DNA of 64,000 nucleotides from assembly GCA_963800405.1 (NCBI GenBank), contig CAWDBW010000071.1, forward strand, positions 557 through 64,556. Direction: 5' to 3'. The DNA comes from an uncultured Acidobacteriota bacterium (lineage in GTDB: Bacteria > Acidobacteriota > Terriglobia > Terriglobales > Acidobacteriaceae). The notes below the pieces were generated by a model. That model was not told where the DNA came from. It did no database searches and worked only from the letters and a program-made list of their open reading frames with translations. Positions within the stretch are counted from its first letter, which is position 1. Each line of letters starts with the position of its first letter. The position numbers and the translations under genes were made by a program. Below are positions 30,673-47,388 of this stretch, one piece after another.

Positions 30673-30842
30673 GTTGCGCAGGCGTTGACCCTTGCACCAG
30701 AGATGTCAGCACGACGCAGAGAAGCTACATCAGGACGGTGCCCAAGCTGTGACCGACGCCATGAATCAGTTGGAGGCAAGAATAGCTCGTGCAGCAGTTA
30801 TGCAGCAGGCCGCGGTGAACTGATCGCAAGTGCTTGAAAGAA

Positions 30843-30887
30843 TGGAGCCGACGAGCGGACTTGAACCGCTGACCTGCCGATTACGAA
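30843..30887. repeat. attL: 45-bp copy of the 3' part of tRNA-Thr (anticodon loop to CCA)
   Basis: tggagccgacgagcggacttgaaccgctgacctgccgattacgaa, identical to 47297-47341. Flanking bases differ. Confidence 0.9.
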
Positions 30888-31009
30888 GTTAGCAGCCACT
30901 ACCCCGCCCCATTAAGATTCATACAGATACGACCCGCCCAGCCGCGTTGAATGGGGACGTTCGGCGTTGGTCGGGGTGGTTTTGTGGGCCACAATGTGGG
31001 CCAGTCTTT

Positions 31010-31222
31010 TTATTTCGGGCTCGCCCAGCGCGGGGTTGTCCTCAACGCCTCAAGTTGAGCATACGTCACGGGCGGCGACGAGAAGGACATGAAATCCTCG
31101 GTCGTGGTCACGACCGCGCGCTCGACCTGCTGAAACAAAGTGACGGCAGCCGTCAGCGTGACGAGCACACTGCCAACCTTCTTCCACAAAGAGGCTTTGC
31201 GACGTTTACGCTGGGGCGTCAT
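31010..31222 (-). CDS. Small protein with one predicted TM helix (island cargo)
   Basis: 70 aa, basic N-terminus MTPQRKRRKASLWKK followed by VGSVLVTLTAAVTLF. Confidence 0.4.
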   Translation of the reverse strand: MTPQRKRRKASLWKKVGSVLVTLTAAVTLFQQVERAVVTTTEDFMSFSSPPVTYAQLEALRTTPRWASPK

Positions 31223-31241
31223 CCCCCGATTCTACACCCGG

Positions 31242-31532
31242 TCACTTCCCCGCGCTGGCGGATTTGCTCTTCTTCTTTCCCTTCGGCGGCACGATAACGG
31301 CCTGCTCGATAAGGACAGTGGAAAGGTCCCCGAAGTCACCAACCCCGATGTGCATTTGTAGGTTATCCAGCGCGCGCACTAAGTCGCCGAGTTGCTCGCC
31401 CAATACACCGCCCTCGTCGTACTCGGGGCGGTCGGTGCCGTACAGCGTCCGCAACAACTCTTCGAGCACTTGGCACGCACGACCAACCTCACGCGCAGCC
31501 ATGTCCTGAACACTCAACTTCTTCTTCGCCAT
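31242..31532 (-). CDS. Hypothetical protein (island cargo), Lys-rich C-terminus
   Basis: 96-aa ORF with an ATG start, 20 nt upstream of the TM-protein gene. Confidence 0.45.
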   Translation of the reverse strand: MAKKKLSVQDMAAREVGRACQVLEELLRTLYGTDRPEYDEGGVLGEQLGDLVRALDNLQMHIGVGDFGDLSTVLIEQAVIVPPKGKKKSKSASAGK

Positions 31533-31614
31533 CGGTGTTCCCTCCAGTTTGTGACGTTAAAAGAGGCGGGCGCGGAGCGGCAAGTTACCGTAGTGTGCAG
31601 AATGGATAAAGTTG

Positions 31615-31670
31615 GGGCCACGGGTGACTTCAGGCGCGTGAGGAAGGCTGGGGTGGGCCGCCGATACCAC
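31615..31670. repeat. 56-bp direct repeat, copy A (partner at 33573-33628, 2 mismatches)
   Basis: gggccacgGgtgacttcaggcgcgtgaggaAggctggggtgggccgccgataccac. Lies 20 nt downstream of the nuclease-like gene stop. Confidence 0.85.
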
Positions 31671-31690
31671 TTCGAAACCGAGCTGATGAC

Positions 31691-32581
31691 TCAGGAGGAT
31701 TGCAGGACCAGAAGTTTCACGTTCACGGTACCGTCCTTTGTCTTTCTCTCGCCCTCCAGGTCCTTCTTCAATCCCTCGGCGTTTCTTATGAGGTGTTGGG
31801 GGTCGTAGACGACGCACCACAGGGCATCGCACTCCGGGTGCTTTCGATAGTGCTCAATGTCGATAATTAGCTCGTTGCCAATCTTCGTGGCGTGGTTCGC
31901 ATCACGCACGAACTTCAGCTCAATCACGAGCCTGTGTGCGGGAAGAAGGAAATCCATCCGCGTGCTGGAGCCAGCCAAGCTGGGTGTGAACTCCTCGGGC
32001 CTGATGTCAGCGACCCACGGGCGCAACAGCGCGTGCAGCAAATCCTGAACGTCATACTCCGTGGAGAAGGTCAGGGCGACCGCGCCTTTCCGCCTTTGCG
32101 TCAACGGATGCATCGCTCTCCGAAGGTTCTTCAAGAGAACCAGCAGCAGCTCGTCGATGTCGCCGGGCTTCCTCGGGCCGCGCGCGCTGGCCGATGCAGG
32201 GTACGCCTCCTCTGGCGGTTGGCCGCTCGGCAACACGCGACCGCCACGGTAGTAGCGAAAGCCGTTCTCCTCTAACACCTTGACCACGCGCGCCCGGTCC
32301 TTCTTCCAGTCGCTGACTGAGTAGTCGTCGTTCGGGTCATCATCGTCCGGTTCGACGTCCATGAACTCTTCGAGGATGTTGCCCAGAACCGTGAGGCTGT
32401 CGACTGCGGGGTCGCTCCCCGCACGAAAAAGCCAATCTTTCCATTTGGTCGCGTGAGAAAGATTCGAGGGTTCGCCGGGTGCGCCCGACGAAACGAACAG
32501 AGCTTCGAGATTTGCGTGGGACCCACGCAGGACGGAGGCGACGGCGGCGCATACACCTCTCGACAATCGAACGTTCGTCAT
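31691..32581 (-). CDS. PD-(D/E)xK nuclease-fold protein with an uncharacterised N-terminal domain (candidate defence/Abi effector)
   Basis: C-terminal domain TEYDVQDLLHALLRPWVADIRPEEFTPSLAGSSTRMDFLLPAHRLVIELKFVRD has the E...D...ExK layout. Start taken at ATG 32581 (MTNVRLSRG...); the ORF is open to 32665. Confidence 0.6.
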   Translation of the reverse strand: MTNVRLSRGVCAAVASVLRGSHANLEALFVSSGAPGEPSNLSHATKWKDWLFRAGSDPAVDSLTVLGNILEEFMDVEPDDDDPNDDYSVSDWKKDRARVVKVLEENGFRYYRGGRVLPSGQPPEEAYPASASARGPRKPGDIDELLLVLLKNLRRAMHPLTQRRKGAVALTFSTEYDVQDLLHALLRPWVADIRPEEFTPSLAGSSTRMDFLLPAHRLVIELKFVRDANHATKIGNELIIDIEHYRKHPECDALWCVVYDPQHLIRNAEGLKKDLEGERKTKDGTVNVKLLVLQSS

Positions 32582-32714
32582 GCTCAGGAGTGATGCTACC
32601 AAACCAGTAGGCTTTACGCCCGGCATTGTGCCCTTAGTAAGTGTGTCTTTCGGTGCCCCGCACACTTACACACGGCACTTGCTTGGGTTTTGGGGCGGAG
32701 TGAACATCCGTCCC

Positions 32715-32999
32715 ATGATGAAAACCAAACAGCAAGCGGGCCGGGTCGGAGGGCAGGCGGTGACGCCTCGCAAATCCGAAGCGGCGCGGGAGAACGGGCA
32801 CCTCGGCGGACGCCCTTGCAAGGCCGCCATTACGTACAGCGAGGCCCGCACGCGGGTACTTGCGCTGGTCACGGACCTGAACACGATGCTGATGGAGCAC
32901 GCGGCCCGGCAGGAAAAGGACCCGACGAATTACGGGTACGCAGGCGACATGAATCACTACGCCGAGTTGCTCGAAGAACTTCTCGGTCGCCGCAAGTAA
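32715..32999 (+). CDS. Small basic protein with a GRVGG...AARENGHLGGRP motif (common in phage/plasmid accessory genes)
   Basis: ATG 32715 (MMKTKQQAGRVGGQAVTPRKSEAARENGHLGGRPCK...). Divergent from the nuclease-like gene. Confidence 0.5.
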   Translation: MMKTKQQAGRVGGQAVTPRKSEAARENGHLGGRPCKAAITYSEARTRVLALVTDLNTMLMEHAARQEKDPTNYGYAGDMNHYAELLEELLGRRK

Positions 33000-33069
33000 C
33001 GCGGGCCACGGGGCTGTTGAAGCAGCACCGTGACCCTTAACCAAGTACCGGGCGCGGAGGCCCGACAAA

Positions 33070-33363
33070 ATGGCTGTCACCAAGCATACCGCACGTCCAA
33101 TTTTCCACTACGTCCTGAAGAACCGCATCGTCGGCGGCGAGGTCTCGCTGCCAATCACGCGCGAAGAGGCGAGGCGGATAATCCGCAAGTGGTCGGTAGC
33201 GTTGCGGCACAGGCAGCGCGGTCACCGTACCCTTTTCCTGCTGGAAGTTCACCGGGGGCGGAAGTGGGACCGCCTGACTCTGGAAACACATCATCACAGA
33301 ACGCGGAAAAGGGTCATGGCGGAGGATTCCGCATGTGCTTCGAAGAAGTGGGTGACGGAATGA
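33070..33363 (+). CDS. Hypothetical basic protein
   Basis: 97-aa ORF. Its stop overlaps the start of the next ORF (ATGA at 33360-33363). Confidence 0.4.
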   Translation: MAVTKHTARPIFHYVLKNRIVGGEVSLPITREEARRIIRKWSVALRHRQRGHRTLFLLEVHRGRKWDRLTLETHHHRTRKRVMAEDSACASKKWVTE

Positions 33364-33509
33364 CCACGCGCGAAACCGTTAACGGAAGGCTGGCGACCGT
33401 CTCTCACCTGACGGAGGCGTGGGTGCCTTGCGCGCCGAAGGACGCTTCCATCGTGAAAGTGGTATTCGATGACGGGGAGGTACTCTTCGGCTTCGTAAAG
33501 GAGCACTGA
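33360..33509 (+). CDS. Hypothetical 49-aa protein, translationally coupled to 33070-33363
   Basis: MTTRETVNGRLATVSHLTEAWVPCAPKDASIVKVVFDDGEVLFGFVKEH. Confidence 0.35.
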   Translation: MTTRETVNGRLATVSHLTEAWVPCAPKDASIVKVVFDDGEVLFGFVKEH

Positions 33510-33572
33510 CGGGTCAGGCAAGCCCCACGGCCTCCGGTTCGCGCCGGGGGCCTTTCCCGTTTTGCGAACGCC

Positions 33573-33628
33573 GGGCCACGTGTGACTTCAGGCGCGTGAG
33601 GATGGCTGGGGTGGGCCGCCGATACCAC
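33573..33628. repeat. 56-bp direct repeat, copy B
   Basis: gggccacgTgtgacttcaggcgcgtgaggaTggctggggtgggccgccgataccac. Ends 3 nt before the stop codon of 33632-34717. Confidence 0.85.
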
Positions 33629-33631
33629 CGC

Positions 33632-34717
33632 TTACGACTTGGTCACCAGCAACGCTTCCTTGTCACCAATCCCGCTCGTGCGGGTCAGCAGAAACAACAC
33701 GGTGTCGCCGTTGCGTGCGGAGTAGGTTCGGTTCGCCTCGCTGACGCGCACGAGGGTGGTTTCGTCCGTGTGATTCCGAAGGTCCAGCGTCGGCGTGATA
33801 ATTCCCTCGCCGTTGCCGTTCGCTTCCAAGCCGGAGATGACTCCCGCGTACACGATGCCGTCGAATACGTGACCGAGGTCCCTGCTGGTGGGGAACAGCG
33901 TGGCCATCTGAGGCGCGGTCAACTGGTCGCCTGCGGAGTTCGCGGACAAGTCAGTCCCGTTAAAGCTTCCACCTCCTCCACCGCCCACGCCGATTGCGGT
34001 CGTGAGGTAGAAGGCTTGCCACAGCAGCGCGCCAACGCCGATGTTGTCACCCGTGGGTCCGCCGAAGTTCGTTTGCAGCGACGAGCTGGTCTCCACCAAC
34101 TGCGACTGCGCACCAATCGTGGCGGTCTTCGCGTTCAGGGTTGCGGTCGCCGCGCCGTCGAGCGTGTAACCAGATGACGTGTTTCCCGTCAGGAGCGCGG
34201 TGTCGGTCGTGAAGAGCGCGCCGACGCCCACGATGAATCCACCGTTGCCTTCCAGATACACGCCGGGGATGATGCTCGCGCCCGATAGCGGCTCGGTGAT
34301 TCCCGTCGCGGGCAGGCTGTAGTTTGCGGTCGATGCCGTGCTCAGCCCGTTCACCTCATAGCACGCGATGCCGACCTGACAGTTGCCTGCGGCTGAAATC
34401 GGCGCGAAGGTGAACGTCACCGATTCCGCTCCCGAGCTGGGCGTGATGGTAAAGACGCCGAGGAGGATGGTTTCATTGTCAGAAGCCGTTGGGTAGATTT
34501 CAACGATGGTCGGCGTCGAGCTGTTGCTTTGCGAATCCGTCACCGTGGCGAAGCCAGAGCCGTTCCCACCAAGGGACGCGCCGATACTGGCTGAGTAATC
34601 CACGGCCTGCACTGCGACGACGATTTTGTTCCCCGCTGTGATGTGCGAGGGGAAGGTTGCGGTAACCGTCGCTGCACCTGTGGCAAACGCGGTCACTTTC
34701 TGAACGATGCTGGACAT
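33632..34717 (-). CDS. Hypothetical Gly/Ser/Thr/Ala-rich protein (possible fibre/receptor-binding-like)
   Basis: 361 aa, beta-rich low-complexity composition with a GGGGGG tract. No recognisable motif. Confidence 0.55.
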   Translation of the reverse strand: MSSIVQKVTAFATGAATVTATFPSHITAGNKIVVAVQAVDYSASIGASLGGNGSGFATVTDSQSNSSTPTIVEIYPTASDNETILLGVFTITPSSGAESVTFTFAPISAAGNCQVGIACYEVNGLSTASTANYSLPATGITEPLSGASIIPGVYLEGNGGFIVGVGALFTTDTALLTGNTSSGYTLDGAATATLNAKTATIGAQSQLVETSSSLQTNFGGPTGDNIGVGALLWQAFYLTTAIGVGGGGGGSFNGTDLSANSAGDQLTAPQMATLFPTSRDLGHVFDGIVYAGVISGLEANGNGEGIITPTLDLRNHTDETTLVRVSEANRTYSARNGDTVLFLLTRTSGIGDKEALLVTKS

Positions 34718-34833
34718 GGTAAGGAAGCCCTCAGTGTCCCCGAAAGGTGTTAACCCCTTGCCGGGGAAAAAGCAGGCAGAGAAGGTCCTGACGAACCCCG
34801 ACGTGGTGGTCGTCTCCGTCCTGCGTTACGAAC

Positions 34834-35802
34834 TCAAGAAGCCTGCGCCTGCGAAGCCCCCGCGCCTGCGGTAGCTGGCCAGCCGTGCTCGGCGCGATAC
34901 CGGGCGATGAAGTCCTCGCGCTCCTTGCGGCGGTGGTAATACCTCCGCTTCTTCTCTGCATCAGCGGCGAGACGGGCACTGACGACGTCGTTCACGCCGG
35001 GCCGCATCACAATAATCTCCATCGTCGCCGGGTCCTGCTGCGGCGTCATCTGCTTGTAGGTCTTGTTGAGGCGGTGAAGAATCGCACGCACGTGCGGCGG
35101 TTTGAATCCGAACATTGCTCCGACGCCGACCGAATCCTGACCAACGTTGTAGGCTTGATAAAGCATCCCAAGGATGACGGCGGGCGCGTTCTCCTGCGTC
35201 AACCGAAGGTCGGTGTCGAGCGTTTCTATTGACCGCCTGAGCACACGCTGGCGGTCACCATCCACGTTCTTCGAAGCCACGAGTTCGTTGCAGAGTTCGT
35301 CCATCACCTTCAGCTTCGCGGGCAGCTTGGCACGCAGATGGTCACACGCGGTCTTCAACCGTTCGGCCTCTGTTCCCGTTGTCGACAGCCGCTGCTTTTT
35401 ACTGAAAGCGCGGGCTTCGAAGTACGCGACCAACACGGCGCGCACGGTCGATTGGTTTCGCGTCCATTCGGGAATGCCACGGCAGAGAGAACGTCTTCCG
35501 TGCCGGGCGGTGGACGTCTGCATGCGGGTGTAGTCCTCGAACGCAATTCCGTTCGAGACGATTTCACCGTCAGCCTCGACGTGAGCAGAGATGGGAACTT
35601 CGTGGCGGCCAAAAAACTGATGTGCTTCCGGTTCCGAACCGTGAGCGGCTGCGGGTGGGCAAAAAGTTATTGGGGTCATCAGAACACTGAGAAACTGTGA
35701 GGGGGTCTCCGCCAGCGCGCGGACAGTTTCTTCACGCGCGCCAACGGAAGGTTGAGAAATTGTTGGGGGCTTTCGGTCGCCCCCGGACCAACTCTTCTGC
35801 AT
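34834..35802 (-). CDS. Hypothetical protein with a possible HTH near residue 230 (GMLYQAYNVGQDSVGVGAMFGFKPPHVRAILHRLNK)
   Basis: 322-aa ORF. ATG 35679 is an alternative start. Confidence 0.5.
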   Translation of the reverse strand: MQKSWSGGDRKPPTISQPSVGAREETVRALAETPSQFLSVLMTPITFCPPAAAHGSEPEAHQFFGRHEVPISAHVEADGEIVSNGIAFEDYTRMQTSTARHGRRSLCRGIPEWTRNQSTVRAVLVAYFEARAFSKKQRLSTTGTEAERLKTACDHLRAKLPAKLKVMDELCNELVASKNVDGDRQRVLRRSIETLDTDLRLTQENAPAVILGMLYQAYNVGQDSVGVGAMFGFKPPHVRAILHRLNKTYKQMTPQQDPATMEIIVMRPGVNDVVSARLAADAEKKRRYYHRRKEREDFIARYRAEHGWPATAGAGASQAQAS

Positions 35803-35923
35803 TCCATCCGCAAGAGTCCCAGAGATGGTCGAGGCACGACCCGCACCGCGTTACCGCGTATGCTGGGTCCCCGCTCGACAACGGGCACGCCCCCAGCTCT
35901 CGCCGGGGGAACGTCGTAAAAAC

Positions 35924-36049
35924 TTATTTGCGGTTCGGGTTCGCGGGCGTCGGCGCGGGCGACTTGAACGGCAAGGGCGGCGCGGGTCGCACGCCGGAGT
36001 TCGGTTGCTGATATCCGTTGTCGGGATTCGGTTCGTTATTGATTTCCAT
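35924..36049 (-). CDS. 41-aa proline-rich micro-protein (paralog of 36192-36317)
   Basis: ATG 36049 preceded by AAGGAGA. MEINNEPNPDNGYQQPNSGVRPAPPLPFKSPAPTPANPNRK. Confidence 0.45.
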   Translation of the reverse strand: MEINNEPNPDNGYQQPNSGVRPAPPLPFKSPAPTPANPNRK

Positions 36050-36191
36050 GACGGAGTCTCCTTTTAATTTTGGGTCCGCAACCAGCCAGCCTCTCGACTT
36101 TGCTGGTTGCGGAGTTATCGCGCGGGGGCTCAGGAGAAAGCGGCCTCCGACTGCCCACGCTTCTTTTTGTCTCAGTCGGTAGACAAGCTTT

Positions 36192-36317
36192 TTATTTCTT
36201 CGGCTGCGGGCGCGCGGGCGCTGGTACGGTCGGCTGCGATTGCGGCCTGCCCCACGGCGGAACCGTCGACGGGTGAACGTTGGGGGTGAGAATGTTGGGG
36301 CGGTTGTCGTCGCTCAT
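36192..36317 (-). CDS. 41-aa proline-rich micro-protein
   Basis: ATG 36317 preceded by GAGGAG. MSDDNRPNILTPNVHPSTVPPWGRPQSQPTVPAPARPQPKK. Confidence 0.45.
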   Translation of the reverse strand: MSDDNRPNILTPNVHPSTVPPWGRPQSQPTVPAPARPQPKK

Positions 36318-36321
36318 GTTG

Positions 36322-36770
36322 TTAGCTCCTCTTGCTCTGAATTCTTTTCGTTGCGGCGGCGTGATGCTCGGCGCGGTAAACTTCGCCCAGCCTCTTCGCT
36401 TCCAGATACTTTCCGAACTCTGCATTGAGCGGGGTGACGATAGCGCGCAACTCGGCCAGCTCTTTTCGAACCTGCTCCAACAGCGCGGCGGAGTCAGGAC
36501 CAGCCGGGCCACGGTCGCCACGGTCGCCCTTGATGCTTTCGCCCGGTCGCCCTTGCGGGCCGGGTGTGGTTGACGGCTCCCCGCGTTCGCCGCGTTCACC
36601 ACGCTCACCGCGCGCCCCTGTGATGCTCGCGCCATCTTTGCCCGGCTTGCCTTCCTTCAGCTCGATGGTCTTGATTTCGCGCTGGAGTTCGCCGACCAGA
36701 CTCTCAAGCTGGTTGAGACGCCGATGCACGGAGAATTTGTTGACATCGAGTTTTGTCAGCGTCGCGGTCA
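36322..36770 (-). CDS. Coiled-coil protein with collagen-like G-x-y repeats
   Basis: GKPGKDGASITGARGERGERGERGEPSTTPGPQGRPGESIKGDRGDRGPAGP. GTG 36770 lies 1 nt after the upstream stop; the ORF is open to 36894. Confidence 0.6.
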
Positions 36771-36772
36771 CG

Positions 36773-37186
36773 TTAGTTCCTGATTTCCCACGGGAAAAGT
36801 TCTGCCGTGACAATGGCAGCGTTGTGCGCGGCCTGTTCGTTTTCCGCAGCCAGCGCGCGGCGGTCGACTTCGACTTGACGCCCGAGGTTCGCAAGCTTCA
36901 TCCGCAAGTCTTGGTCACTGACGTACACGCGTCCTGTCTGCTGGCGATATCTCTCTTCGAGAGAAATCTGCTTCACGCGCGCGGGCGCGGCAGAGCGAAT
37001 TTCAACACCCACGGGCGCGCCGGGGATTGCGCTGTCGAACGTCCAGACGTTTTTATTCGTCCTGAGATTGGCGGCGCGCAGCTCGGCGATTTTTGCCGCG
37101 AAGATTGGGGGACAAGAATCGGGGACGGCTGCCCACCCTCGGGCTTCGTTGCGCTCGTTCATGTTTCTGATTTCAGTTGCGGTCAT
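36773..37186 (-). CDS. Hypothetical protein
   Basis: ATG 37186 preceded by AGGAGA. The upstream 171 codons of the 308-aa ORF are an R/S/P-rich shadow frame overlapping 37242-37724. Confidence 0.55.
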   Translation of the reverse strand: MTATEIRNMNERNEARGWAAVPDSCPPIFAAKIAELRAANLRTNKNVWTFDSAIPGAPVGVEIRSAAPARVKQISLEERYRQQTGRVYVSDQDLRMKLANLGRQVEVDRRALAAENEQAAHNAAIVTAELFPWEIRN

Positions 37187-37241
37187 AAAATTTCTCCTGC
37201 TCCAGCTCTCCCCACTGTTACTCGAAAAGTGTTCCGCCCTT

Positions 37242-37724
37242 TTACAGAGGCTTGCTTCCGAAAACCGCCGACATGACGGTGCGATGTCCCGCCCACTTGT
37301 CCTTGCGCTCTTGCTCCTCCTGAGACTTCTTCGCGGCAGCGATTGCGACAGCGTTCGCTTCAGGCGAGAGAGACGCGGCGTCCAAAAATTGCTGCGTGAT
37401 ACTGCGCGGACAGTCGGCTGGCGGTGTATCGAAGAAGAAAGTGTCAGAGCCGACGCGCTTGATGACGGCGACCACTTTCCCGCTCTGGTGGATGCCCCAC
37501 TCGACGCCCGAGACACCTGCGACGGTGTCGTGAGCGTCAGGAACGGTCGCGGTCGCGGCCTGCTCGTTACGCGCGGCCAGCCATTCCTTCGAACCACGCG
37601 CAGGCATGGGCACGGCTTTCGCGGAGCCCTGCGCGATGAGAACCTGAGCAACGTGAGCTGGTAGGTTGGTGATGGTATTGCGGAGAGATGGGTCGGCAAC
37701 GAATTCGGTGTACTGGATTTTCAT
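37242..37724 (-). CDS. Hypothetical protein
   Basis: ATG 37724 (MKIQYTEF...) preceded by GAGGA. Confidence 0.55.
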   Translation of the reverse strand: MKIQYTEFVADPSLRNTITNLPAHVAQVLIAQGSAKAVPMPARGSKEWLAARNEQAATATVPDAHDTVAGVSGVEWGIHQSGKVVAVIKRVGSDTFFFDTPPADCPRSITQQFLDAASLSPEANAVAIAAAKKSQEEQERKDKWAGHRTVMSAVFGSKPL

Positions 37725-37799
37725 ACTGTCCTCATTGAAAAAGGATTTATCGTTCAAGGCTGTATTCCGCCTCAGTCTTACAACCGCGTGTGACGGCAT

Positions 37800-38024
37800 C
37801 TACTGGACGAACCGTGACGCAGACTTCGCCACTTGCAACGGATACTTTTTCATCGCCTCAACGAAGGCGGCAGAGTGTTCGAGGATGGTCTTCGCCGCGT
37901 CCATAGGAACAAGCGGCTCCAGACCCAGCTCGTTGCACGCGTCGTTGACGGCGCAGATTGCCGCGATGAGTTTTTCCTCTTTTGTGACCGACCACTTCGG
38001 CTTCTTCTCTTTCGGTTTCCTCAT
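37800..38024 (-). CDS. Hypothetical protein
   Basis: 74 aa, 4-nt overlap with the terS stop. Confidence 0.5.
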   Translation of the reverse strand: MRKPKEKKPKWSVTKEEKLIAAICAVNDACNELGLEPLVPMDAAKTILEHSAAFVEAMKKYPLQVAKSASRFVQ

Positions 38025-38575
38025 TGGATTCCTTCCGCTGTGACCAGCAGCCTGTCAAAGTCTTCTTCGGGGTCCTCGGCGGGCGGCTTGACCGCTTCGG
38101 GTTCGCGCGAAAGCAAAGCAGCATCCTCGGTCGACAGTGCGGGCTGTTCATTTTTCGGGGGCTTCGTCAGCTTGCGGCTGACCGGGGTCGCACTCAACTG
38201 CACGAGGTACGCGCGCATCTGGGACTCCAGCCTTGCGGCAATTTTCGACGCTGGGGATTCCTCAACTTTTATGTGCTCGTTGTTGTTCTTGTCCAGCCAC
38301 GAAGTTTCACTCAGCGGGTTCGCGGCGGCCATCGCTTCGACCTTGCGCCAGCGGGCGTAGATGCGAACGTAGATTTCCAGCGTCGATGCGTCGGCCTTCG
38401 TCAGTTGCCTGCGCTTGCAGAGCTTCGGCACGAGACGTCGCCACTCAGCCTCGGCGACAGGGCACAAATCCGCGGGCATTTTCGGTCGGCCACTGGCGAA
38501 CTCGGGTTCGGGTGACCACGCGGGCTTGGTGCCGTTCAAAACGTGCGTCGCTATGTCCTTGCGGTCGGTCGGCAT
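38021..38575 (-). CDS. Phage terminase small subunit, P27 family
   Basis: ...GRPKMPADLCPVAEAEWRRLVPKLCKRRQLTKADASTLEIYVRIYARWRKVE...LESQMRAYLVQLSATPVSR matches the P27 TerS pattern as I recall it. Confidence 0.75.
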   Translation of the reverse strand: MPTDRKDIATHVLNGTKPAWSPEPEFASGRPKMPADLCPVAEAEWRRLVPKLCKRRQLTKADASTLEIYVRIYARWRKVEAMAAANPLSETSWLDKNNNEHIKVEESPASKIAARLESQMRAYLVQLSATPVSRKLTKPPKNEQPALSTEDAALLSREPEAVKPPAEDPEEDFDRLLVTAEGIQ

Positions 38576-38790
38576 CAGCGCGTCTCCTGATTGGGCGCGA
38601 ACAGGACAGGCTGGCGGGTCACCACGACCTTGCGCTGGTCCGGGGTCAGCGTGTCCATGAACGCATTGTGGCGAAGGGCACGCCTGATAACTTCAGCTAC
38701 GGGCGCACCGCTTTCGGCAGCGATGCCCTTGATGCGCGCGGCGAGGGCGTCCTCGGCGTGAAAAACAAATCTGGTTTTCGTGGTAGCCAC
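38575..38790 (-). CDS. Ribbon-helix-helix (CopG/Arc-like) protein
   Basis: 71 aa. TRFVFHAEDALAARIKGIAAESGAPVAEVIRRAL. Overlaps the terS start by 1 nt. Confidence 0.55.
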   Translation of the reverse strand: MATTKTRFVFHAEDALAARIKGIAAESGAPVAEVIRRALRHNAFMDTLTPDQRKVVVTRQPVLFAPNQETR

Positions 38791-39331
38791 TGGTGGGCCT
38801 CCTGTCTCTGTTGCCCACAGGTGTGACGGCCTCCATAAGCTGCTTATCGGGTCATCAGGCGCGCCCCAGCAAAGGGGCCGGATGTCAGGCCGATGTCACC
38901 CTGAAGGCGCAGGGCTGGGCGGGCAAGGGCCAAGGAAGCGGTCCTAAAGGGACCGGGGGGTCTCGCTATTCATGCGGGCGTGTCTCTCTAAGAGCGGCGC
39001 GCGCGGTATTGCGCGAGGGCGTGGGAAAAACATCCCGCCTACCCCCTACATAACACGGGGGTTAGCTCGGTCGGGGGCATCCAAGGCGCAACACGTAACT
39101 TGCTGAGTCGTTGGGAGTTAGGTCAGGTGATGAAGCAAAGGCGAAGGGTCGCTTGGGCGCGCCGGGGATTATGTCAACTGACAAAATGAGGCTGGATTAT
39201 GCTCGGTTCGCTGCGGAATACGACCAACGAAAGGGCCGACGCCGGGCCACGTTTGACGACACGTGGGCTCCTCACGCACGCGCCGGGGCGAAGGGTCACG
39301 TTGGTTTGCTTATCGCCCACGCGGTCACTGT

Positions 39332-39341
39332 GGGGGGGGGG
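39332..39341. repeat. G10 homopolymer tract inside the 630-bp non-coding gap between the HNH and RHH/terS genes
   Basis: ctgtGGGGGGGGGGttcac. Confidence 0.9.
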
Positions 39342-39422
39342 TTCACTGGTTATCGTGTGATTGGGTGTTGCTGGGTCTCTCTGCTCTACTTTCGTTTTTT
39401 TGACCTTACGCGGGCGCGCGGG

Positions 39423-39878
39423 TCACAGGTCTGGGATGCCTGACAGCAGCGCTGCGATGTCATCAGCGTTTTGTGGAATTAATTCGTTCAGTTTGCGAAC
39501 GTCAATGGTGGATGACTTGTACTGCTGTCCATCCTCACCTGTGACAGCAATGTGGTCTTCTTTTCCTGCCTTCGGTGCGTTGCCAAATCCTCGGTCATAA
39601 GTAGCGGTCGCCGTGTTGTGGCATGGGGCGCACAATCCCCTCAAATTTTCGGGCGACGAAAAAAGCACCCAACTCACCGTGCCGTCAGGCGCGATGAAAG
39701 GCTTGATGTGGTCGACGACCGCGCTCGCTCGCTTTTGACAAATTCTGCAAATGGGGTCGCGTTGAAGAATGAAGACACGTAATTGCTTCCGCCAGAAGGC
39801 TCGGTTCTCCCACGGATGTTTGCACGTCCGGGGAACCATCGGGCCGCCTTCGTACTCTTGCCAAGTGTCGTTGCTCAC
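39423..39878 (-). CDS. HNH endonuclease
   Basis: CRICQKRASAVVDHIKPF...NLRGLCAPCHN. Confidence 0.8.
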   Translation of the reverse strand: MSNDTWQEYEGGPMVPRTCKHPWENRAFWRKQLRVFILQRDPICRICQKRASAVVDHIKPFIAPDGTVSWVLFSSPENLRGLCAPCHNTATATYDRGFGNAPKAGKEDHIAVTGEDGQQYKSSTIDVRKLNELIPQNADDIAALLSGIPDL

Positions 39879-40183
39879 TGCGGTCTCTTCCTGCCGTCAG
39901 GTGTCTCCATGAGAAGCTTGCCGTGGCGGTCGTAAAAATCGTACTCGCCGGGCAGCGTCGGCGGGATGCCGCGTTCGGCTGCGTGATGGTTGCAGACGAC
40001 TTTTACTCCCAGCGCATCGGCCAACTCGGGCGATTGTGGGACATCGTTGATAACGCCCGCGCATTCGAAGCACACGGCATACTCTGTCCCCTCACTGCTA
40101 CCCACGAGAACGTCGGGTGGTGACCCAGCCATGACGTGGGCGCAAAGAAGGATTGCTGCTCGGCAATCGGGACTGTGACTCAT
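39875..40183 (-). CDS. Hypothetical Cys/His-containing protein
   Basis: 102 aa, 4-nt overlap with the HNH gene start. Confidence 0.5.
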   Translation of the reverse strand: MSHSPDCRAAILLCAHVMAGSPPDVLVGSSEGTEYAVCFECAGVINDVPQSPELADALGVKVVCNHHAAERGIPPTLPGEYDFYDRHGKLLMETPDGRKRPQ

Positions 40184-40242
40184 TGGCTTTTTCGCCTCCG
40201 GGGTCGTGTACTATACCGTCCTTCACTTCGGAAAGTGAAGTT

Positions 40243-40470
40243 CTATTTCCTCGGCCAAGGCAGACTTTCGATTTCGCTCTCGCCGCGAAGCATGGCAGCA
40301 ACGACTCGATGCGCGCCATCGATGAGCAATAAGTGACCAACATCCTCAACGTAAATCGGCGGGCATGTTGACGCGGGAAGTTCGGCGTACTTTTTGCAAA
40401 CGTCCGGGTCACGCATTAAGGCTTCGAGGATGTGGATGGAATTTCGCGCGACCAGCTCTGCGATTTTCAT
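40243..40470 (-). CDS. Small ParB-N-terminal-domain-like protein (tentative)
   Basis: ...PPIYVEDVGHLLLIDGAHRVVAAMLRG resembles the ParB/Srx DGxHR core. Confidence 0.4.
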   Translation of the reverse strand: MKIAELVARNSIHILEALMRDPDVCKKYAELPASTCPPIYVEDVGHLLLIDGAHRVVAAMLRGESEIESLPWPRK

Positions 40471-40733
40471 TGGAACCGAGTTCTCTGCGTTCCGCGTCCA
40501 AGCATGTACTCCTCGGCGCGGGTCATTGGGGGAACGGTGGATGCGTGTTGGGGGCGTCGAGAGGAGGCGAGTTCGTCGATGGTTTCCTCCACCGCGCTTT
40601 CCTTGCGACCGTACTCGTCGTAATACACTGCTCTGATTGTCATGGGATTTTTTGAAAGGCTGGGCTGGAGGTCATCGCCGCACTCCCACGGTGGTAAGAG
40701 TGTTCTCGGCTCTCTCCAGCCCACGTCACACAA
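40467..40733 (-). CDS. Hypothetical protein (start uncertain; ATG 40643 is an alternative)
   Basis: 4-nt overlap with the downstream gene. Confidence 0.35.
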   Translation of the reverse strand: MCDVGWREPRTLLPPWECGDDLQPSLSKNPMTIRAVYYDEYGRKESAVEETIDELASSRRPQHASTVPPMTRAEEYMLGRGTQRTRFQ

Positions 40734-40797
40734 CAGCTTTCCACTGACTTGCGTCTCGCTTTATAGCTGTCAATGTATCCGTGAGGTGTGACCGGGG

Positions 40798-41130
40798 TTA
40801 TCTCTGCCGTTTCGGTCGGTTGGTGCTGCTGCGGACAACGCTGACGGCCTCACCGTCCAACTTCACTGGCTCCAAAATCCAGTTCAGGATTTCGACCAAA
40901 ATGTCCTCCGTGACGGAGAAGATGGCGCAGGCGTGAAAGTCATATGTCCGAACGCTTATCAGGCTCGGCGGAATGTTCAGACCGGACTGCTGGTAAAGGT
41001 CTGCGCTCAGGCTTTCGGCGGTGGTTCCCTTTGGAAGATGACGGATGGTTAACCACGTGCCGAGTGGCAGGGTTTGCTTCGCGTTCGGTACGGCTGCGTT
41101 CATTTCTGGGCTCCCAGTCGATTTCCTCAT
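40798..41130 (-). CDS. Hypothetical protein (ATG 41103 is an alternative start with GGGAG upstream)
   Basis: 110-aa ORF in the island chain. Confidence 0.45.
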   Translation of the reverse strand: MRKSTGSPEMNAAVPNAKQTLPLGTWLTIRHLPKGTTAESLSADLYQQSGLNIPPSLISVRTYDFHACAIFSVTEDILVEILNWILEPVKLDGEAVSVVRSSTNRPKRQR

Positions 41131-41166
41131 CCACGTACAACGTGACGCACGGCGGTATTCGCGGCC

Positions 41167-41340
41167 TTAGCACGCGCCCCCGCTCTTCAGCGTTCTCTGC
41201 CACTTCGGTACGGATTCGAGGAGGGCCTTCGTCTCGATAAACGAATCGATGACTTCGGGAGCGACTCCCAACTCGGTAAGGCGGTCTTCGAGTTCTTCGG
41301 GGTCGGAGGGCAGTAACTCTGTCGTCTTTTCCTTAAGCAT
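41167..41340 (-). CDS. Hypothetical acidic 57-aa protein
   Basis: MLKEKTTELLPSDPEELEDRLTELGVAPEVIDSF... The ATG overlaps the end of the upstream ORF. Confidence 0.35.
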   Translation of the reverse strand: MLKEKTTELLPSDPEELEDRLTELGVAPEVIDSFIETKALLESVPKWQRTLKSGGAC

Positions 41341-41614
41341 TTTGTTCTCTGCTTTCTCGCCTCGCGCGGAGGCGTTCCTCGTAGCGGTCTTCCGCTGTTT
41401 CCCTGATGTTGGGCAATGGCGTAGGAAACAGGCGCTCGACCGTGTGTTTGTATGAGCAGCCCTTGCCGCACGGACCCTGCGATACATCTCTGACGAATTC
41501 CTCGCTCCCAAGTTCGATGTGAGTCGTGGCGTGACAACGGCTGACACTTCCGTAGTCACCGCTCCCGTGGATTTCTGCGGTCGGATATAACTTACGGGCG
41601 TGCGTGTAGCTCAC
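41333..41614 (-). CDS. Hypothetical Cys-containing protein
   Basis: 93 aa with a GTG start. Confidence 0.4.
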   Translation of the reverse strand: MSYTHARKLYPTAEIHGSGDYGSVSRCHATTHIELGSEEFVRDVSQGPCGKGCSYKHTVERLFPTPLPNIRETAEDRYEERLRARRESREQNA

Positions 41615-41765
41615 GGGTTTCCTCTTCCTGCATTTTCCGAACTGCGCGGCGGATGACCGCGCCGACCGATTCGTGACCGCGCGCGGCGGCCTGCTCCAGC
41701 CAGACGGTCAGGTCGGCGGGCATGTACGTCACGACGGGCTTGTTCGGTGTCGACACGGTGTTCAT
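41592..41765 (-). CDS. 57-aa ribbon-helix-helix protein (below the ORF-track length cutoff)
   Basis: MNTVSTPNKPVVTYMPADLTVWLEQAAARGHESVGAVIRRAVRKMQEEETRELHARP. It is the first gene after a ~190-bp gap. Confidence 0.45.
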   Translation of the reverse strand: MNTVSTPNKPVVTYMPADLTVWLEQAAARGHESVGAVIRRAVRKMQEEETRELHARP

Positions 41766-41959
41766 ACTGGCAGGGAGGTGTTACGAGGGCCGGGCTGCGG
41801 AAAATGAAACGGCACCGTTCTCACGCACGGGGTTCGGTGCCATTTCGGAAGGACTCAAGGGGTCTCAGAATCGGCTTGTGCCGTTTTGTGCCAGTACGTT
41901 TTCAGGTGATACAAAACACGCCGTTTAAAATTCGTCGGTCCTCTCATAAGGAAAAAGTG

Positions 41960-42247
41960 TCACTTCGTTTGGTCGTCAGAGTCATGTTGGCACCCCGTGA
42001 CACCGGGGCTTGCTCCCGCGCGGCGGGTGAACCGCGCGGGCAGAACAAACGCCTGAACCCACAGTCCTTCGGGGCCTTGGGACCAGCCAGCTTCACTCAG
42101 TATGCGGCGGACAACAGTCACCCATAAACCGATTCCTCGTTCCCTGCACAAAACCGTCGCATCTATCCTTGGGTTCTTGTGGATGATTCTTTCCATCCTT
42201 TTCAAGTAAAACTTGTCCGCCTTTGCTCTCGCCCTTTTGTGCTTCAT
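41960..42247 (-). CDS. Small HTH-like protein
   Basis: MKHKRARAKADKFYLKRMERIIHKNPRIDATVLCRERGIGLWVTVVRRILSEAGW. Confidence 0.4.
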   Translation of the reverse strand: MKHKRARAKADKFYLKRMERIIHKNPRIDATVLCRERGIGLWVTVVRRILSEAGWSQGPEGLWVQAFVLPARFTRRAGASPGVTGCQHDSDDQTK

Positions 42248-44256
42248 CAGCGCTTCACCTTTCTTACAACTTTTACGCGCCCGTTCTTGCTGAGTTCGAT
42301 GTCACCGCAAACCTCCAGAGAAGCCAGCGCCCGGTTGACGATGGACGGACCCCAGTCGATGACTACGTGCGTTGAGCGGAACATGTCGCGCTGGGAAATC
42401 CAGCCATCACTGTCGCCTTGATGGTCGGCCAAGTAGTCAGTCACCTTGCAGGCAACAATCGCCTCGGGGTTCTTGCCGGGGTTCGGCTTGAACCTTTTCC
42501 GCACATTTATCTGGTAGGCAATGAAAGCCTTCATCGGCCCGAGGTCCGCGCCGTGAAGCGTGCGGCGACCGTCCATCGAAGCCGCGATGAGGGCGGCGCG
42601 CAGGCCCAGCTCAAGCAGGCGACTGTCAGCCGCTGTCAACTTCAACTCCTCCGCGATGCGGTCACGGGCATCCCAGACATCGTTGTCGATTTCCACGGGG
42701 ACCGGGCGTTCGGTTCCGAACACCTCCTCCGGCTCGGCGAGGTCGGGCGTCCTCAGCGCGGGCTCTCCAGTAAACGCGCGGTATTTGTAGGCGTACCCTG
42801 ACGGCGCAACTCCGAAGATGAACCTGTCGTAGAAACCACCCGTGGTTGCCGCGCCGAAGAGGTCGTTGAACATCTCGTCAACCACGCCTCCCGCAACTGA
42901 GAGACGGCAGTTGAAATTGACCTTCGCGTTCTTCGCCAGAATGAGGTCCTGCTGGTCCTCGTAGAAGATGGTGTTCAGAATCGTTGCGAACGCAGAGCCT
43001 TGAATCGTCAGCTTGAGAAGCAGGTGGGCCAGCTCATCCGTGAAGTAAAGCCGTGACGCCCCACCGACGTCGCCTATCTCTTTCGTCAGGCCCTCACCCG
43101 AACCCGCTTTCAGTTTGAGGAGTGCGGGGACCTTAAGGTCGAGCAGCCGAATAGCGTAGTCGAACGCGCTGGTCTTGCCCGTGCCCTTCCCACCGACGAG
43201 CGCGACGAAAAGATTGGTGCGATTGCTCGGGGTCGGGCTGTGCGGAACCAAAACGCTGGCTACCGAGAGGAGCGCGGGCCACGAGAATGCAATCGGAAAC
43301 GCGCCCATGCGCTCTTTGCAAAGCCGTCCCAGCCAGCCGTCAAGAACCTCCTCGGGCATGTCTTCGATGCCGACCTTCTGCTCGGCGATAAGAAGCTTCA
43401 CGGCGTCGTGTACTTTATCGAGTGACCACACGCCGTTCTTGTCCGGCTCGATGGTCACCACCTGAGTGCAGCACCGTTGAAGCCGCGCTTCGACGTCCGA
43501 GTCTCTGAACGTCAGCACGACAGGCTTCCATGACAGCGGCCCGGTCACGTCCTCGGGTCCTTTCAAGCCGAGAACCGCCTTGCGCGCCCGAGGGTCCATG
43601 ACGTACACGCAGTTGTAGGCGTACCAGCGGGTGATTTCTCCTCGGCGCAGGCGGTCGCTTATTTGCATGTCGAGGTACAACTGGCGCGCGTCGCCGTTGT
43701 CCATGACAACGAAGACGGGTTCGTTCGCATCGTCCGGGACGTTGCTTCCGTCAATCCAAGTCGTCGTGGAAGTTTTCGCGGCGGCGTCACGCAGTCGCTC
43801 GATGAGACTGCCGACGCCCACAGGCCCGAGGTTACGGGTCAGCGATTCCCAGCCCGGCTCCGTTGTGGGTGGAGGCGTTGGGAACATCTGAGTGCATCCT
43901 GCCTTCGGCTCACAGTAGCACTTGCGACCGCATTCTCCGTGGTCGGGGCAGAGAGTACCGTCGTCAACGTGCGTGTACACATCAGTGGCGGTGAAGGAAC
44001 AGCCGGGCAGCAGGTCTTGAATACGCCGAGCAGCTTCCTCCTGAAGAGCCAGCGGAACACACGGCTCGCCTGTGGGGAACTTGCTGTTTGTCAGGAGCCA
44101 GCGAAGGCCCACCTTCCCACGGTCGCCGGGCGTTCCCAGCCATAGGTGGTGATAAGGGCAAAAGTCTGCTGGTTGCTTGCGGGTGAGTTCGAGCTGTGCC
44201 TCTTGGTAGAGTGCTTCGATGGTCGGGCTGGTTTTGAAGAGTTCGTCTAACGTCAT
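42247..44256 (-). CDS. P-loop NTPase, putative replication initiator/helicase (DUF3987 or D5-like, tentative) with an N-terminal Cys cluster
   Basis: 669 aa. Walker A LVGGKGTGKTS. Walker-B-like RLYFTDELAHL. CPDHGECGRKCYC near the N-terminus. Confidence 0.6.
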   Translation of the reverse strand: MTLDELFKTSPTIEALYQEAQLELTRKQPADFCPYHHLWLGTPGDRGKVGLRWLLTNSKFPTGEPCVPLALQEEAARRIQDLLPGCSFTATDVYTHVDDGTLCPDHGECGRKCYCEPKAGCTQMFPTPPPTTEPGWESLTRNLGPVGVGSLIERLRDAAAKTSTTTWIDGSNVPDDANEPVFVVMDNGDARQLYLDMQISDRLRRGEITRWYAYNCVYVMDPRARKAVLGLKGPEDVTGPLSWKPVVLTFRDSDVEARLQRCCTQVVTIEPDKNGVWSLDKVHDAVKLLIAEQKVGIEDMPEEVLDGWLGRLCKERMGAFPIAFSWPALLSVASVLVPHSPTPSNRTNLFVALVGGKGTGKTSAFDYAIRLLDLKVPALLKLKAGSGEGLTKEIGDVGGASRLYFTDELAHLLLKLTIQGSAFATILNTIFYEDQQDLILAKNAKVNFNCRLSVAGGVVDEMFNDLFGAATTGGFYDRFIFGVAPSGYAYKYRAFTGEPALRTPDLAEPEEVFGTERPVPVEIDNDVWDARDRIAEELKLTAADSRLLELGLRAALIAASMDGRRTLHGADLGPMKAFIAYQINVRKRFKPNPGKNPEAIVACKVTDYLADHQGDSDGWISQRDMFRSTHVVIDWGPSIVNRALASLEVCGDIELSKNGRVKVVRKVKR

Positions 44257-44546
44257 TGATTCTCCTTTTTGCTGCGAAGTTTTTGTTTCTCACTCCACGC
44301 GATGAACTCCTCGCGTGTCATCTCTGGGAACACCGCAACAACACGCGGCGCATCGCCCGGCTTCTGGTCGAGGATGGCGTCGATGAACACCTTCGGCATC
44401 GATTCCATCCGCGCGTTCACGAGAACCTCGGCCTGCGCCAGCAGTCGTTCGGCCCTGCGAAGCAGAATCCCGCGCACGACGTTGTTCGCCGTCAGCGAGT
44501 GTTCCAATACGCTTCGGGCCTCCGTGGTTAACGCGCGAGCGCTCAT
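44253..44546 (-). CDS. Hypothetical protein
   Basis: ATG 44546 overlaps the upstream stop (ATGA); 4-nt overlap with the helicase-like gene. Confidence 0.5.
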   Translation of the reverse strand: MSARALTTEARSVLEHSLTANNVVRGILLRRAERLLAQAEVLVNARMESMPKVFIDAILDQKPGDAPRVVAVFPEMTREEFIAWSEKQKLRSKKENQ

Positions 44547-44890
44547 GCGTTCCCTGCCGAGTTCAGTATCTGAATGTGCTCGTCGCACAAATAGACGACC
44601 GTGCCCTCAAACTTTCCCCACAAAGCCTGCTGACGAATTGCGGGCCTGCCGCATGGAAACATCGCGACCTTCGGGTCACCGTCAATCTCTCCGCAGCGAT
44701 GACGGAACCTGTGCGGCCAAGGTGCGAGTACTGACTGCATGATGCGCCGTGGCGATTCCTCGCCGTCGAACCTCACAAGGTACGGCGCGCCGTCCTCTTC
44801 GAACGGGCCGCCCTCGATAGTGCCCGGCATGTTGTACGGTTCGTATCCGTCGTCGAGCAAGCCGACGCGGTCACCAGTTTTGTATGCCAT
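44543..44890 (-). CDS. Hypothetical protein
   Basis: 115 aa, MAYKTGDRVGLLDDGYEPYNMPGTIEGG... Confidence 0.5.
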   Translation of the reverse strand: MAYKTGDRVGLLDDGYEPYNMPGTIEGGPFEEDGAPYLVRFDGEESPRRIMQSVLAPWPHRFRHRCGEIDGDPKVAMFPCGRPAIRQQALWGKFEGTVVYLCDEHIQILNSAGNA

Positions 44891-44910
44891 CTTTTTAGTT
44901 CTCCTTTTTG

Positions 44911-45261
44911 TCAGTTCGTGAAAGCAAGGTGGAGTTGGCTGTCGGCGGGGACCCAGCCGGGTTGGTCGTCAGCCCAAGCGAGAAACTTTCCGTCGTGAAA
45001 GAGCGGCCAGCCTCCGTCACCCGGAAAGTCGCCGTAGCCCTCTGTGAGTGGCGTGGGCTGCCCACCTTTGGCAATCCACTCCTCGGCTTCTTTGCGTGAG
45101 TGGAACCGCTCGTTGTACACGTATTCGTCAATCGCTGACGCGATTCCGAACAGGCCGTTGGCGTACGCGAATACCTTCAGCTTGTCGTGGCCCTCGTGCA
45201 CCACCGTTATCTCTTCCGGCTGTTCTGGAAGACCATCGATAATGCGGTCGACGCAGCTCAT
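44911..45261 (-). CDS. Hypothetical protein
   Basis: 116 aa. The start overlaps the upstream stop. Confidence 0.5.
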   Translation of the reverse strand: MSCVDRIIDGLPEQPEEITVVHEGHDKLKVFAYANGLFGIASAIDEYVYNERFHSRKEAEEWIAKGGQPTPLTEGYGDFPGDGGWPLFHDGKFLAWADDQPGWVPADSQLHLAFTN

Positions 45262-45413
45262 CGGGCACCTGCCTTGCTGGTTGGCTTGCTGAACGTGGGA
45301 CTCACGGGCCGGAACTGGAGCAGTATCGCTTCCGGGTTTTCGCTGAGTTCGGCAGCGCGCACGAAACCTTCTTCCACGCCCTGAGCGAACGCGACCTTCT
45401 CTTTCTTCGTCAT
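45258..45413 (-). CDS. 51-aa hypothetical protein (below the ORF-track cutoff)
   Basis: MTKKEKVAFAQGVEEGFVRAAELSENPEAILLQFRPVSPTFSKPTSKAGAR. Both ends are coupled to neighbours by ATGA overlaps. Confidence 0.35.
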   Translation of the reverse strand: MTKKEKVAFAQGVEEGFVRAAELSENPEAILLQFRPVSPTFSKPTSKAGAR

Positions 45414-45634
45414 CACCTTCCTCCTTTTGTCAGCCGTTTGGCTGTGTTGTTACCGCGACTCAAAAACCATTCGAGCAACGTGTTCTTCTCAAAGCGGACG
45501 TAGCGCCCGATGCGGAAGTGCGGAATCTGGTCGTGGTCACGGGTCCTGCACTTTTCGGTCACCCAGCCGGGCTTTACCCGCAGTAGCTTCGCGGCCTCAG
45601 CCGCTGTGAGAATTTCGGTAGCGGGAGTGTTCAT
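45413..45634 (-). CDS. Excisionase/AlpA-type helix-turn-helix DNA-binding protein
   Basis: ILTAAEAAKLLRVKPGWVTEKCRTRDHDQIPHFRIGRYVRFEKNTLLEWF. Confidence 0.7.
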   Translation of the reverse strand: MNTPATEILTAAEAAKLLRVKPGWVTEKCRTRDHDQIPHFRIGRYVRFEKNTLLEWFLSRGNNTAKRLTKGGR

Positions 45635-47372: not shown

Positions 47373-47388
47373 TTCTGGTTTGCTTTCT

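Follow-up and report, generated by a model that had tools for sequence, protein, structure and literature searches.

The 64,000-nucleotide (nt) window analysed here, part of contig CAWDBW010000071.1 from an uncultured bacterium of the Acidobacteriaceae (Acidobacteriota), contains a satellite-like mobile element integrated at a tRNA-Thr gene, and near one end of this element lies a gene for a nuclease-like protein of 296 amino acids (aa; Table 1). With moderate confidence, we read this gene as a self-contained, one-protein anti-phage system of the abortive-infection type, carried as a 'moron' in the att-proximal slot of the element. An earlier note on this DNA had proposed a possible defence or superinfection-exclusion module made of the nuclease and five small neighbouring genes; a defence role is still the best reading, although for the nuclease as a single gene and not for a six-gene cassette. 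From its sequence, the protein is best read as an AbiJ-type combination of an N-terminal sensor domain with a C-terminal effector, in which the effector has been swapped for a DNase of the type found in bAgaN and Detocs.

Residues 147-287 of the protein match Pfam PF18742 (REase_DpnII-MboI; E=7e-44), and the C-terminal domain also matches the PADLOC model Aga_Helical-REase (E=4e-26) and phrog_29450. The nuclease layout E...D...ExK described in the earlier note holds: the motifs that it quoted are present, the Pfam match lies far beyond chance, and E175, D210, E221 and K223 are invariant across 37 homologs of 65-91% identity. The start codon, the ATG at 32581, is shared with 36 homologs. A search of the family profile against PDB sequences matched one solved structure, that of EcbAgaN (E=4.5e-8), and the catalytic Asp and the ExK motif of the window nuclease align with D298/E309/K311 of that enzyme. 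The order of secondary structure elements in the AlphaFold2 (AF2) model is consistent with a PD-(D/E)xK core; a Foldseek comparison of the whole two-domain model with the PDB gave nothing below E=0.04, the low predicted template modelling score (pTM 0.47) of this model making the search uninformative. The linker that precedes the catalytic domain has a predicted local distance difference test score (pLDDT) below 50 at residues 124-135, and shows variable columns and indels in the alignment. Within the catalytic domain, residues 187-208 (31958-32023; RPWVADIRPEEFTPSxAGSSTR) are mostly invariant or nearly so in the family, yet pLDDT is below 50 over residues 191-206; this segment may become ordered only upon DNA binding or oligomerisation.

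The N-terminal domain, which the earlier note had called unrecognised, was borne out as such, with no match in Pfam, NCBIfam, PADLOC or PHROGs, no PDB sequence match by profile, and no Foldseek neighbour in PDB or BFVD (none with E<0.2). It is nevertheless a discrete, confidently folded module of about 118 aa (AF2 model of residues 1-118 alone: pLDDT 93, pTM 0.86). A profile of residues 1-122 searched against 1.84 billion representative proteins revealed this N-module in 418 clusters. Fusions were counted among the listed N-module representatives of at least 200 aa: the module is joined to the restriction endonuclease-like (REase) domain in eight, to a TIR domain in five (TIR_2, CAP12/Pycsar-type and SpbK-like) and to a Ser/Thr protein kinase in one, and in two representatives it is itself preceded by AbiJ_NTD3, with or without a helix-turn-helix domain. 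Its commonest partner is one shared C-terminal family, which follows the N-module in 34 of the listed representatives, most of them of at least 200 aa; every sampled member of this family matches Abi_C (PF14355), the AbiJ-family HEPN domain (e.g., E=8e-21), and two proteins, P0221 and P0205, match the PADLOC AbiJ model in their C-terminal halves (E=2e-17 for P0221). These HEPN versions are named 'abortive infection family protein' by PGAP and were found on 190 plasmids. In P0131, an N-module that closely resembles that of the window protein (E=3.2e-42 to the N-domain profile) is joined to TIR.

The catalytic domain is likewise found in other combinations. A 263-aa protein contains the same PF18742 domain (E=1e-45; 50-54% identical) together with an unrelated N-terminal domain, and this protein or a close relative is present on most of 302 matching plasmid records, mainly enterobacterial, being common on the conjugative plasmids of these bacteria. 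Because the N-module joins other effectors and the REase domain joins an unrelated N-terminal domain, both halves of the window protein behave as exchangeable modules. Examples of the gene for the 263-aa protein lie at 3608-4399 of locus L089 (Klebsiella IncF) and at 3608-4399 of locus L090 (Escherichia coli IncX1), and on IncX1 it adjoins a gene for an 'Abi family protein'.

The full-length family is very uniform, at about 290 aa, with 1,432 matches at E<=0.001, of which the top 120 share 65-100% identity along their full length. In 185,579 species-representative genomes (one genome per species), 502 relatives were detected and 80 of their loci were kept. Full-length relatives among these loci are mostly 55-90% identical and come from Acidobacteriota, many Proteobacteria, Planctomycetota, Verrucomicrobiota, Cyanobacteria, Chloroflexota, Myxococcota and a few archaeal metagenome-assembled genomes (MAGs), the closest being from Candidatus Acidoferrum and Acidobacteriaceae MAGs. 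When all open reading frames (ORFs) up to 5 kb from the gene were clustered across 79 loci, no conserved neighbour emerged; sharing was confined to handfuls of near-identical or sister loci, and the sole larger cluster (10 loci) consisted of ORFs antisense to the gene's conserved 3' end, probably an artefact. The 108 nearest neighbours match 78 Pfam families, each at most twice, and neither a DNA methyltransferase nor an Argonaute/Piwi protein is among the families listed for them.

The contexts of the gene are diverse. The Gabija gene gajA adjoins two of the family loci, full-length homologs lie beside Dsr1 on a Pantoea plasmid and beside KAP/P-loop NTPases and HNH on an Enterobacter plasmid, five viral contigs in IMG/VR encode full-length copies, and in Pectobacterium colocasium CSR2 a homolog is located inside a P2-like tail cluster, between spike and baseplate J. 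Three sets of fetched loci (L001/L002, L005/L006 and L007) contain satellite-like or prophage-like sister elements of the window element. The DNA of the nuclease ORF is 78-87% similar between the window and these elements, and the protein 78-90% identical, but beyond the stop codon, and further than 25-42 bp upstream of the start, the DNA is no longer similar. The lack of shared neighbours, together with the plasmid, prophage-tail and viral contexts, therefore points to the gene as a solitary, horizontally mobile unit, often on mobile elements. In P. colocasium CSR2, a 9.2-kb chromosomal segment occurs three times (4556-13740 of L045, L046 and L047), 100% identical and with differing flanks; it contains genes for tape measure, GpU, GpD, spike V and baseplate J as well as a nuclease homolog of 58% identity.

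In the window, the att end claimed by the earlier note is real: the element is bounded by a 45-nt perfect direct repeat that is a copy of the 3' end of tRNA-Thr(CGU), and a tyrosine integrase is encoded at the opposite end. The nuclease gene indeed lies, as that note had it, in an att-proximal accessory slot of a phage-like element. In L007, 54 nt at tRNA-Thr beside the sister element are identical to the window att region.

Comparison with characterised systems suggests how such a protein might work. EcbAgaN is the effector of BPAN, a long-B Argonaute system, in which it acts as a collateral DNase causing abortive infection; it is Mn-dependent and non-specific, degrades genomic DNA after Argonaute has recognised the invader, and is inactivated by mutation of D298 or of E309/K311 (PMC10620215). 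PF18742 also appears among the alternative effector domains listed for Detocs (bioRxiv 10.1101/2023.01.24.525353). Because of these roles, PF18742 can be seen as a triggered, toxic output module in both settings in which it has been studied. The window nuclease shares with EcbAgaN (PDB 23wq) a homologous catalytic domain with the D...ExK residues aligned, and by analogy it is proposed to be a non-specific DNase that stays inactive until a sensor fires. However, activation of bAgaN comes in trans from an Argonaute encoded next to it, whereas the neighbours of the window nuclease are small ORFs without a Pfam match and no Argonaute partner occurs in the 79 loci; the N-terminal halves are unrelated, with matches confined to the C-terminal domain. 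With Detocs, the shared feature is that PF18742 serves a phage-sensing system as a terminal effector that can be interchanged, but Detocs comprises three genes that form a phosphorelay, its effector carrying a receiver domain. The window system is a single gene with another N-module and no receiver, and conserved kinase or buffer partner genes are absent from the nuclease loci.

As a whole, the protein is laid out like AbiJ-type proteins: a non-catalytic N-terminal domain comes first, then a linker, then a toxic enzyme at the C-terminus, and the gene stands alone and is carried by mobile elements. The N-module of the window protein is found fused to AbiJ-family HEPN itself, and published AbiJ N-terminal domains (NTDs) are, like it, also fused to TIR, kinase and REase domains. 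These NTDs were proposed to bind a viral component and otherwise to restrain the C-terminal toxin (Anantharaman et al. 2013, PMC3710099). The effectors differ, AbiJ having a HEPN RNase and the window protein a putative DNase domain of the PF18742 type without an Abi_C match, so that the protein is AbiJ-like but no AbiJ. The Pfam models AbiJ_NTD3, AbiJ_NTD4 and AbiJ_NTD5 do not match the N-module, and neither does the PADLOC AbiJ model over its N-terminal half. AbiJ-NTD1 and AbiJ-NTD2, described as largely helical domains of about 100-140 aa with AbiJ, REase, TIR and kinase fusions (PMC3710099), would fit the N-module in a comparison of descriptions only.

On this model, the N-module would act in the uninfected cell as both sensor and brake, holding the nuclease inactive, with the linker as a hinge. 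An infection cue, which could be a phage protein, a nucleic acid or a small molecule, would bind or alter the N-module, and the nuclease, probably after oligomerising, would then degrade DNA with little sequence specificity. Destruction of the phage genome, the host genome or both would stop the infection, thereby protecting the clonal population and the resident element.

Several observations weigh against a one-gene defence system. PADLOC, recommended as a check in the earlier note, recognised the C-terminal domain, but no system model covers the full-length protein. Known defence genes account for only about five of the 108 nearest neighbours (two GajA and three mad3), many of the others being housekeeping genes, and PGAP names the full-length plasmid homologs 'transposase'. 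Phage resistance has been demonstrated for AbiJ and is a prediction for the present family. In addition, the N-module is 55-65% identical across phyla, unusually conserved for a phage sensor, and a receptor engaged in an arms race would fit this less well than a conserved ligand or cue, or a role in catalysis; in the alignment of homologs, it nearly equals the catalytic domain in conservation, with a mean column identity of 68%, against 71% for the whole protein. Finally, a GATC-free element carrying a domain named after GATC cutters makes a sequence-specific activity conceivable in this lineage.

This last point leads to the first rival, that the gene encodes a solitary restriction endonuclease acting constitutively on incoming DNA, either as a GATC cutter dependent on a Dam-type methylase that the host encodes at another locus or as a methylation-dependent, type IV-like enzyme, for which a methylase would be unnecessary; we regard it as unlikely. 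Beyond the Pfam domain name, the window protein resembles DpnII, MboI and LlaDCHI in its size (about 290 aa, against 285-304 aa) and in placing a PD-(D/E)xK core behind a helical N-terminal part, and these GATC-cutting enzymes find an echo in the carrier element, which happens to be GATC-free. About 55 sites would be expected in the element, and the GATC-free interval (30822-47440, 16.6 kb) coincides with its borders; elsewhere in the window no GATC gap exceeds 1,060 bp, and GATC is as frequent in the host flanks as expected. Sister segments are GATC-poor as well (observed/expected 1/18.5 in L005, 2/25.4 in L001 and 5/42.7 in L007) beside normal adjacent host DNA, and their nuclease gene copies, at least 78% identical, hold 0-1 GATC. 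Both full-length and C-domain homologs occur on plasmids of Enterobacterales, hosts that methylate GATC with Dam.

However, the window nuclease has no detectable similarity to the authentic DpnII-family enzymes with which it was compared, namely LlaDCHI of pSRQ700, one enzyme from Staphylococcus aureus and one from Psychrobacter, all from annotated plasmids (BLASTP E=4.3; hhalign probability 0.6%; hidden Markov models of the N- and C-domains E>0.1), and it does not match PF04556. Real DpnII systems include one or two Dam-type methylases in the operon; none was found among the neighbours in the 79 loci, and the 64-kb window contains no ORF of at least 200 aa with a (D/N/S)PP(Y/F/W) motif. GATC counts are normal in most homolog genes and their flanks across the wider family, and the viral contigs encoding full-length homologs retain 30-101 GATC. 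Moreover, 6-mer palindromes in general are depleted in the element (observed/expected 0.60, against 0.88-0.90 in the host flanks), the sister elements behaving alike, and nine 6-mers are at zero where 4.5-8.5 would be expected, including CAGCTG, CCCGGG, CGGCCG, CTCGAG, CTGCAG, GCCGGC, GGCGCC and GGGCCC. Because of this general avoidance, which would account for it, the loss of GATC is read mainly as the result of broad anti-restriction selection on the element lineage. The presence of the family in Dam-positive Enterobacterales and, at 55-65% identity, in many phyla would be ill-suited to a single methylation-dependent specificity, and a DNA-cleavage specificity domain would leave unexplained the fusion of the N-module to RNase, NADase-type and kinase effectors.

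A second rival, which we consider quite unlikely, is that the nuclease serves the element, either as a weapon deployed upon induction against helper-phage or host DNA so as to favour packaging of the satellite, or as a selfish, homing-type endonuclease gene. A precedent is the nuclease NixI of the phage-inducible chromosomal island-like element (PLE), a satellite weapon that cuts helper-phage DNA upon induction. The carrier encodes a small terminase and an HNH endonuclease; no large terminase, portal or capsid gene was recognised in it, and because of this lack of a recognisable large terminase or capsid protein it is read as a phage satellite or strongly reduced prophage. It also encodes a 669-aa replication-type protein (weak helicase-type match), a collagen-repeat protein and, within 33632-45885, conserved 322-aa and 361-aa proteins without an assigned role, while the ORF at 36773-37699 has no Pfam match. 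The sister elements have in common the small terminase and genes of 74, 185, 190 and 322 aa, L007 also sharing the tRNA-Thr att site, and L001, unlike the window element, has TerL and an S78 prohead protease; no sister element was found in IMG/VR with the 322-aa protein and the small terminase as queries. The nuclease occupies the same slot in the sister elements, DNA homology is confined to its ORF, insertions are found in many unrelated contexts including phage tail modules, and the element is free of GATC, all of which would be consistent with service to the element. Most family members, however, lie outside satellites, beside ordinary chromosomal genes, where a helper-directed weapon cannot explain them. 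The three Pectobacterium copies reflect duplication and not homing, since the entire 9.2-kb segment is identical, and no inverted repeats or target duplications flank the nuclease gene. Exchange of the N-module among HEPN, TIR and kinase partners is a signature of immune effectors and not one of homing enzymes. For the window element itself, a weapon against a helper phage is a possible role.

In a more novel reading, which we find very unlikely, the nuclease of this lineage would cut GATC within an element purged of GATC, and the N-module would be a new sensor domain conserved across phyla. An element without GATC would need no methylase, being self-immune by sequence avoidance, and on induction or superinfection the nuclease could shred host, helper-phage and rival DNA. 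The N-module could read one universal infection cue and pass it to DNase, RNase, NADase or kinase outputs.

Least probable of the readings considered is the multi-gene one, in which the nuclease together with g96 and g70, the divergent genes, or both would form one defence or superinfection-exclusion cassette, perhaps as a unit bounded by repeats. All six ORFs of the earlier note exist at its coordinates, the gene caller on the native contig disagreeing only over the start of g49 (58 aa, from a further-upstream start), and the ATGA overlap by which g97 and g49 were said to be coupled was confirmed. The genes lie close together at the att end, a gene resembling g97 is divergent from the nuclease in all three sister sets (L001/L002, L005/L006 and L007; 29-47% identity), and g96 has one homolog (36% identity) in L001/L002, downstream of the nuclease in L001. 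A 56-nt direct repeat, present in two copies in the window where none is expected, exactly brackets the nuclease and the three divergent genes; the copies are identical at 54 of 56 positions, have sharp borders and each lie just 3' of a minus-strand gene.

Against a cassette, and in line with a refutation that the earlier note had itself named, the five small genes never co-occur with the nuclease outside the sister elements, and even there they are 29-47% identical, against 78-90% for the nuclease. In the fetched loci searched, homologs of g70, g94 and g49 are lacking, apart from the 3' end of g49, which is present in the metagenome contig L088, and none of the five matches any family library searched. 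The repeat leaves out g96 and g70, and it has no other copy in the window or in 87 loci; its only metagenome match is in L088, a near-identical contig in which copy 2 follows a 98%-identical 361-aa gene. With further copies confined to that contig, the repeat was rejected as a cassette border, and it was also rejected as a terminator or structured RNA (no stable fold; z about +1). The single transmembrane (TM) segment claimed for g70 is marginal: a hydrophobic run is present, but of only about 15 residues, with a best 19-residue Kyte-Doolittle mean of 1.39, below threshold, and the abortive-infection theme of a nuclease plus a TM protein is no firmer than this call. Since homologs of the small genes are sparse and DNA similarity stops at the nuclease ORF, the six genes are not a conserved cassette, and the five small ones are probably backbone or cargo of the element and not parts of the system; co-location in an att-proximal cargo slot is not a functional module. 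The sister elements with g97 homologs share other element genes, which marks g97 as a backbone gene of the lineage, and the stretch from the g97-like gene to att serves as an accessory slot, variable in what else it holds. The product of g94 begins with a basic, Gly-rich stretch, GRVGGQAVTPRKSEAARENGHLGGRP (32715-32800), possibly a DNA-binding tail.

Two further identities were considered. A transposase or insertion sequence is contradicted by the absence of flanking inverted repeats, by the limits of homology at the nuclease ORF and by the triplication that explains the only multi-copy case; a housekeeping or recombination nuclease, such as the resolvase raised in the earlier note, is supported by no library match and not by the position of the gene.

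If the one-gene defence reading is correct, a compact (about 890 bp) and widespread defence system would be added to those known, present in about 500 of 185,579 species genomes as well as on Enterobacter and Pantoea plasmids and in prophage tail clusters. A function would also be attached to an N-module wired to four classes of toxic effector. Because these four classes share the module, identifying its trigger would explain at once the whole AbiJ-like set, including the plasmid-borne 'abortive infection family proteins'. For the family, the analysis also corrects the database labels 'transposase', 'malate dehydrogenase' and 'DpnII restriction endonuclease'; the first, given by PGAP to full-length homologs, and the second, in some records of the 263-aa protein, are probable misannotations.

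Table 1. Positions in the window of the nuclease gene, its parts, its neighbours and the carrier element.
Feature	Position	Strand	Description
Nuclease gene	31691-32581	-	296 aa
N-terminal module, nuclease residues 1-118	32228-32581	-	five helices and a C-terminal beta-hairpin
Linker, nuclease residues 119-141	32159-32227	-	Pro/Gly/Ser-rich; variable in sequence and length
PD-(D/E)xK catalytic domain (PF18742), nuclease residues 142-296	31694-32158	-	E175, D210, E221, K223
Motif GGTTTGGTAGCATC	32592-32605	-	10 nt upstream of nuclease ATG; -10-like TAGCAT
g70, 70 aa	31010-31222	-	basic N-terminus and hydrophobic run of about 15 residues (VGSVLVTLTAAVTLF)
g96, 96 aa	31242-31532	-	19 nt upstream of g70; 158 nt downstream of nuclease stop
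g94, 94 aa	32715-32999	+	divergent from nuclease
g97, 97 aa	33070-33363	+	basic (K+R 23 vs D+E 9); divergent from nuclease
g49, 49 aa	33360-33509	+	overlaps g97 by ATGA
56-nt direct repeat, copy 1	31615-31670	.	just downstream of nuclease stop
56-nt direct repeat, copy 2	33573-33628	.	4 nt past stop of 361-aa gene
361-aa gene	33632-34717	-	stop codon side faces repeat copy 2
Carrier element	30888-47296	.	16.4 kb; integrated, satellite-like; bounded by att direct repeats
att repeat copy	30843-30887	.	element end nearest the nuclease; 100% identical to 47297-47341
tRNA-Thr(CGU)	47297-47372		integration target of element
Small terminase	38021-38575		in element
HNH endonuclease	39423-39878		in element
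Tyrosine integrase	46091-47248		in element, end opposite nuclease

Upstream of the nuclease gene, the motif GGTTTGGTAGCATC is conserved in the window, L001, L005 and L007, within upstream DNA that is otherwise unalignable. It is a candidate regulatory site, possibly an operator or else a -10-like promoter, from which the leader would be very short.

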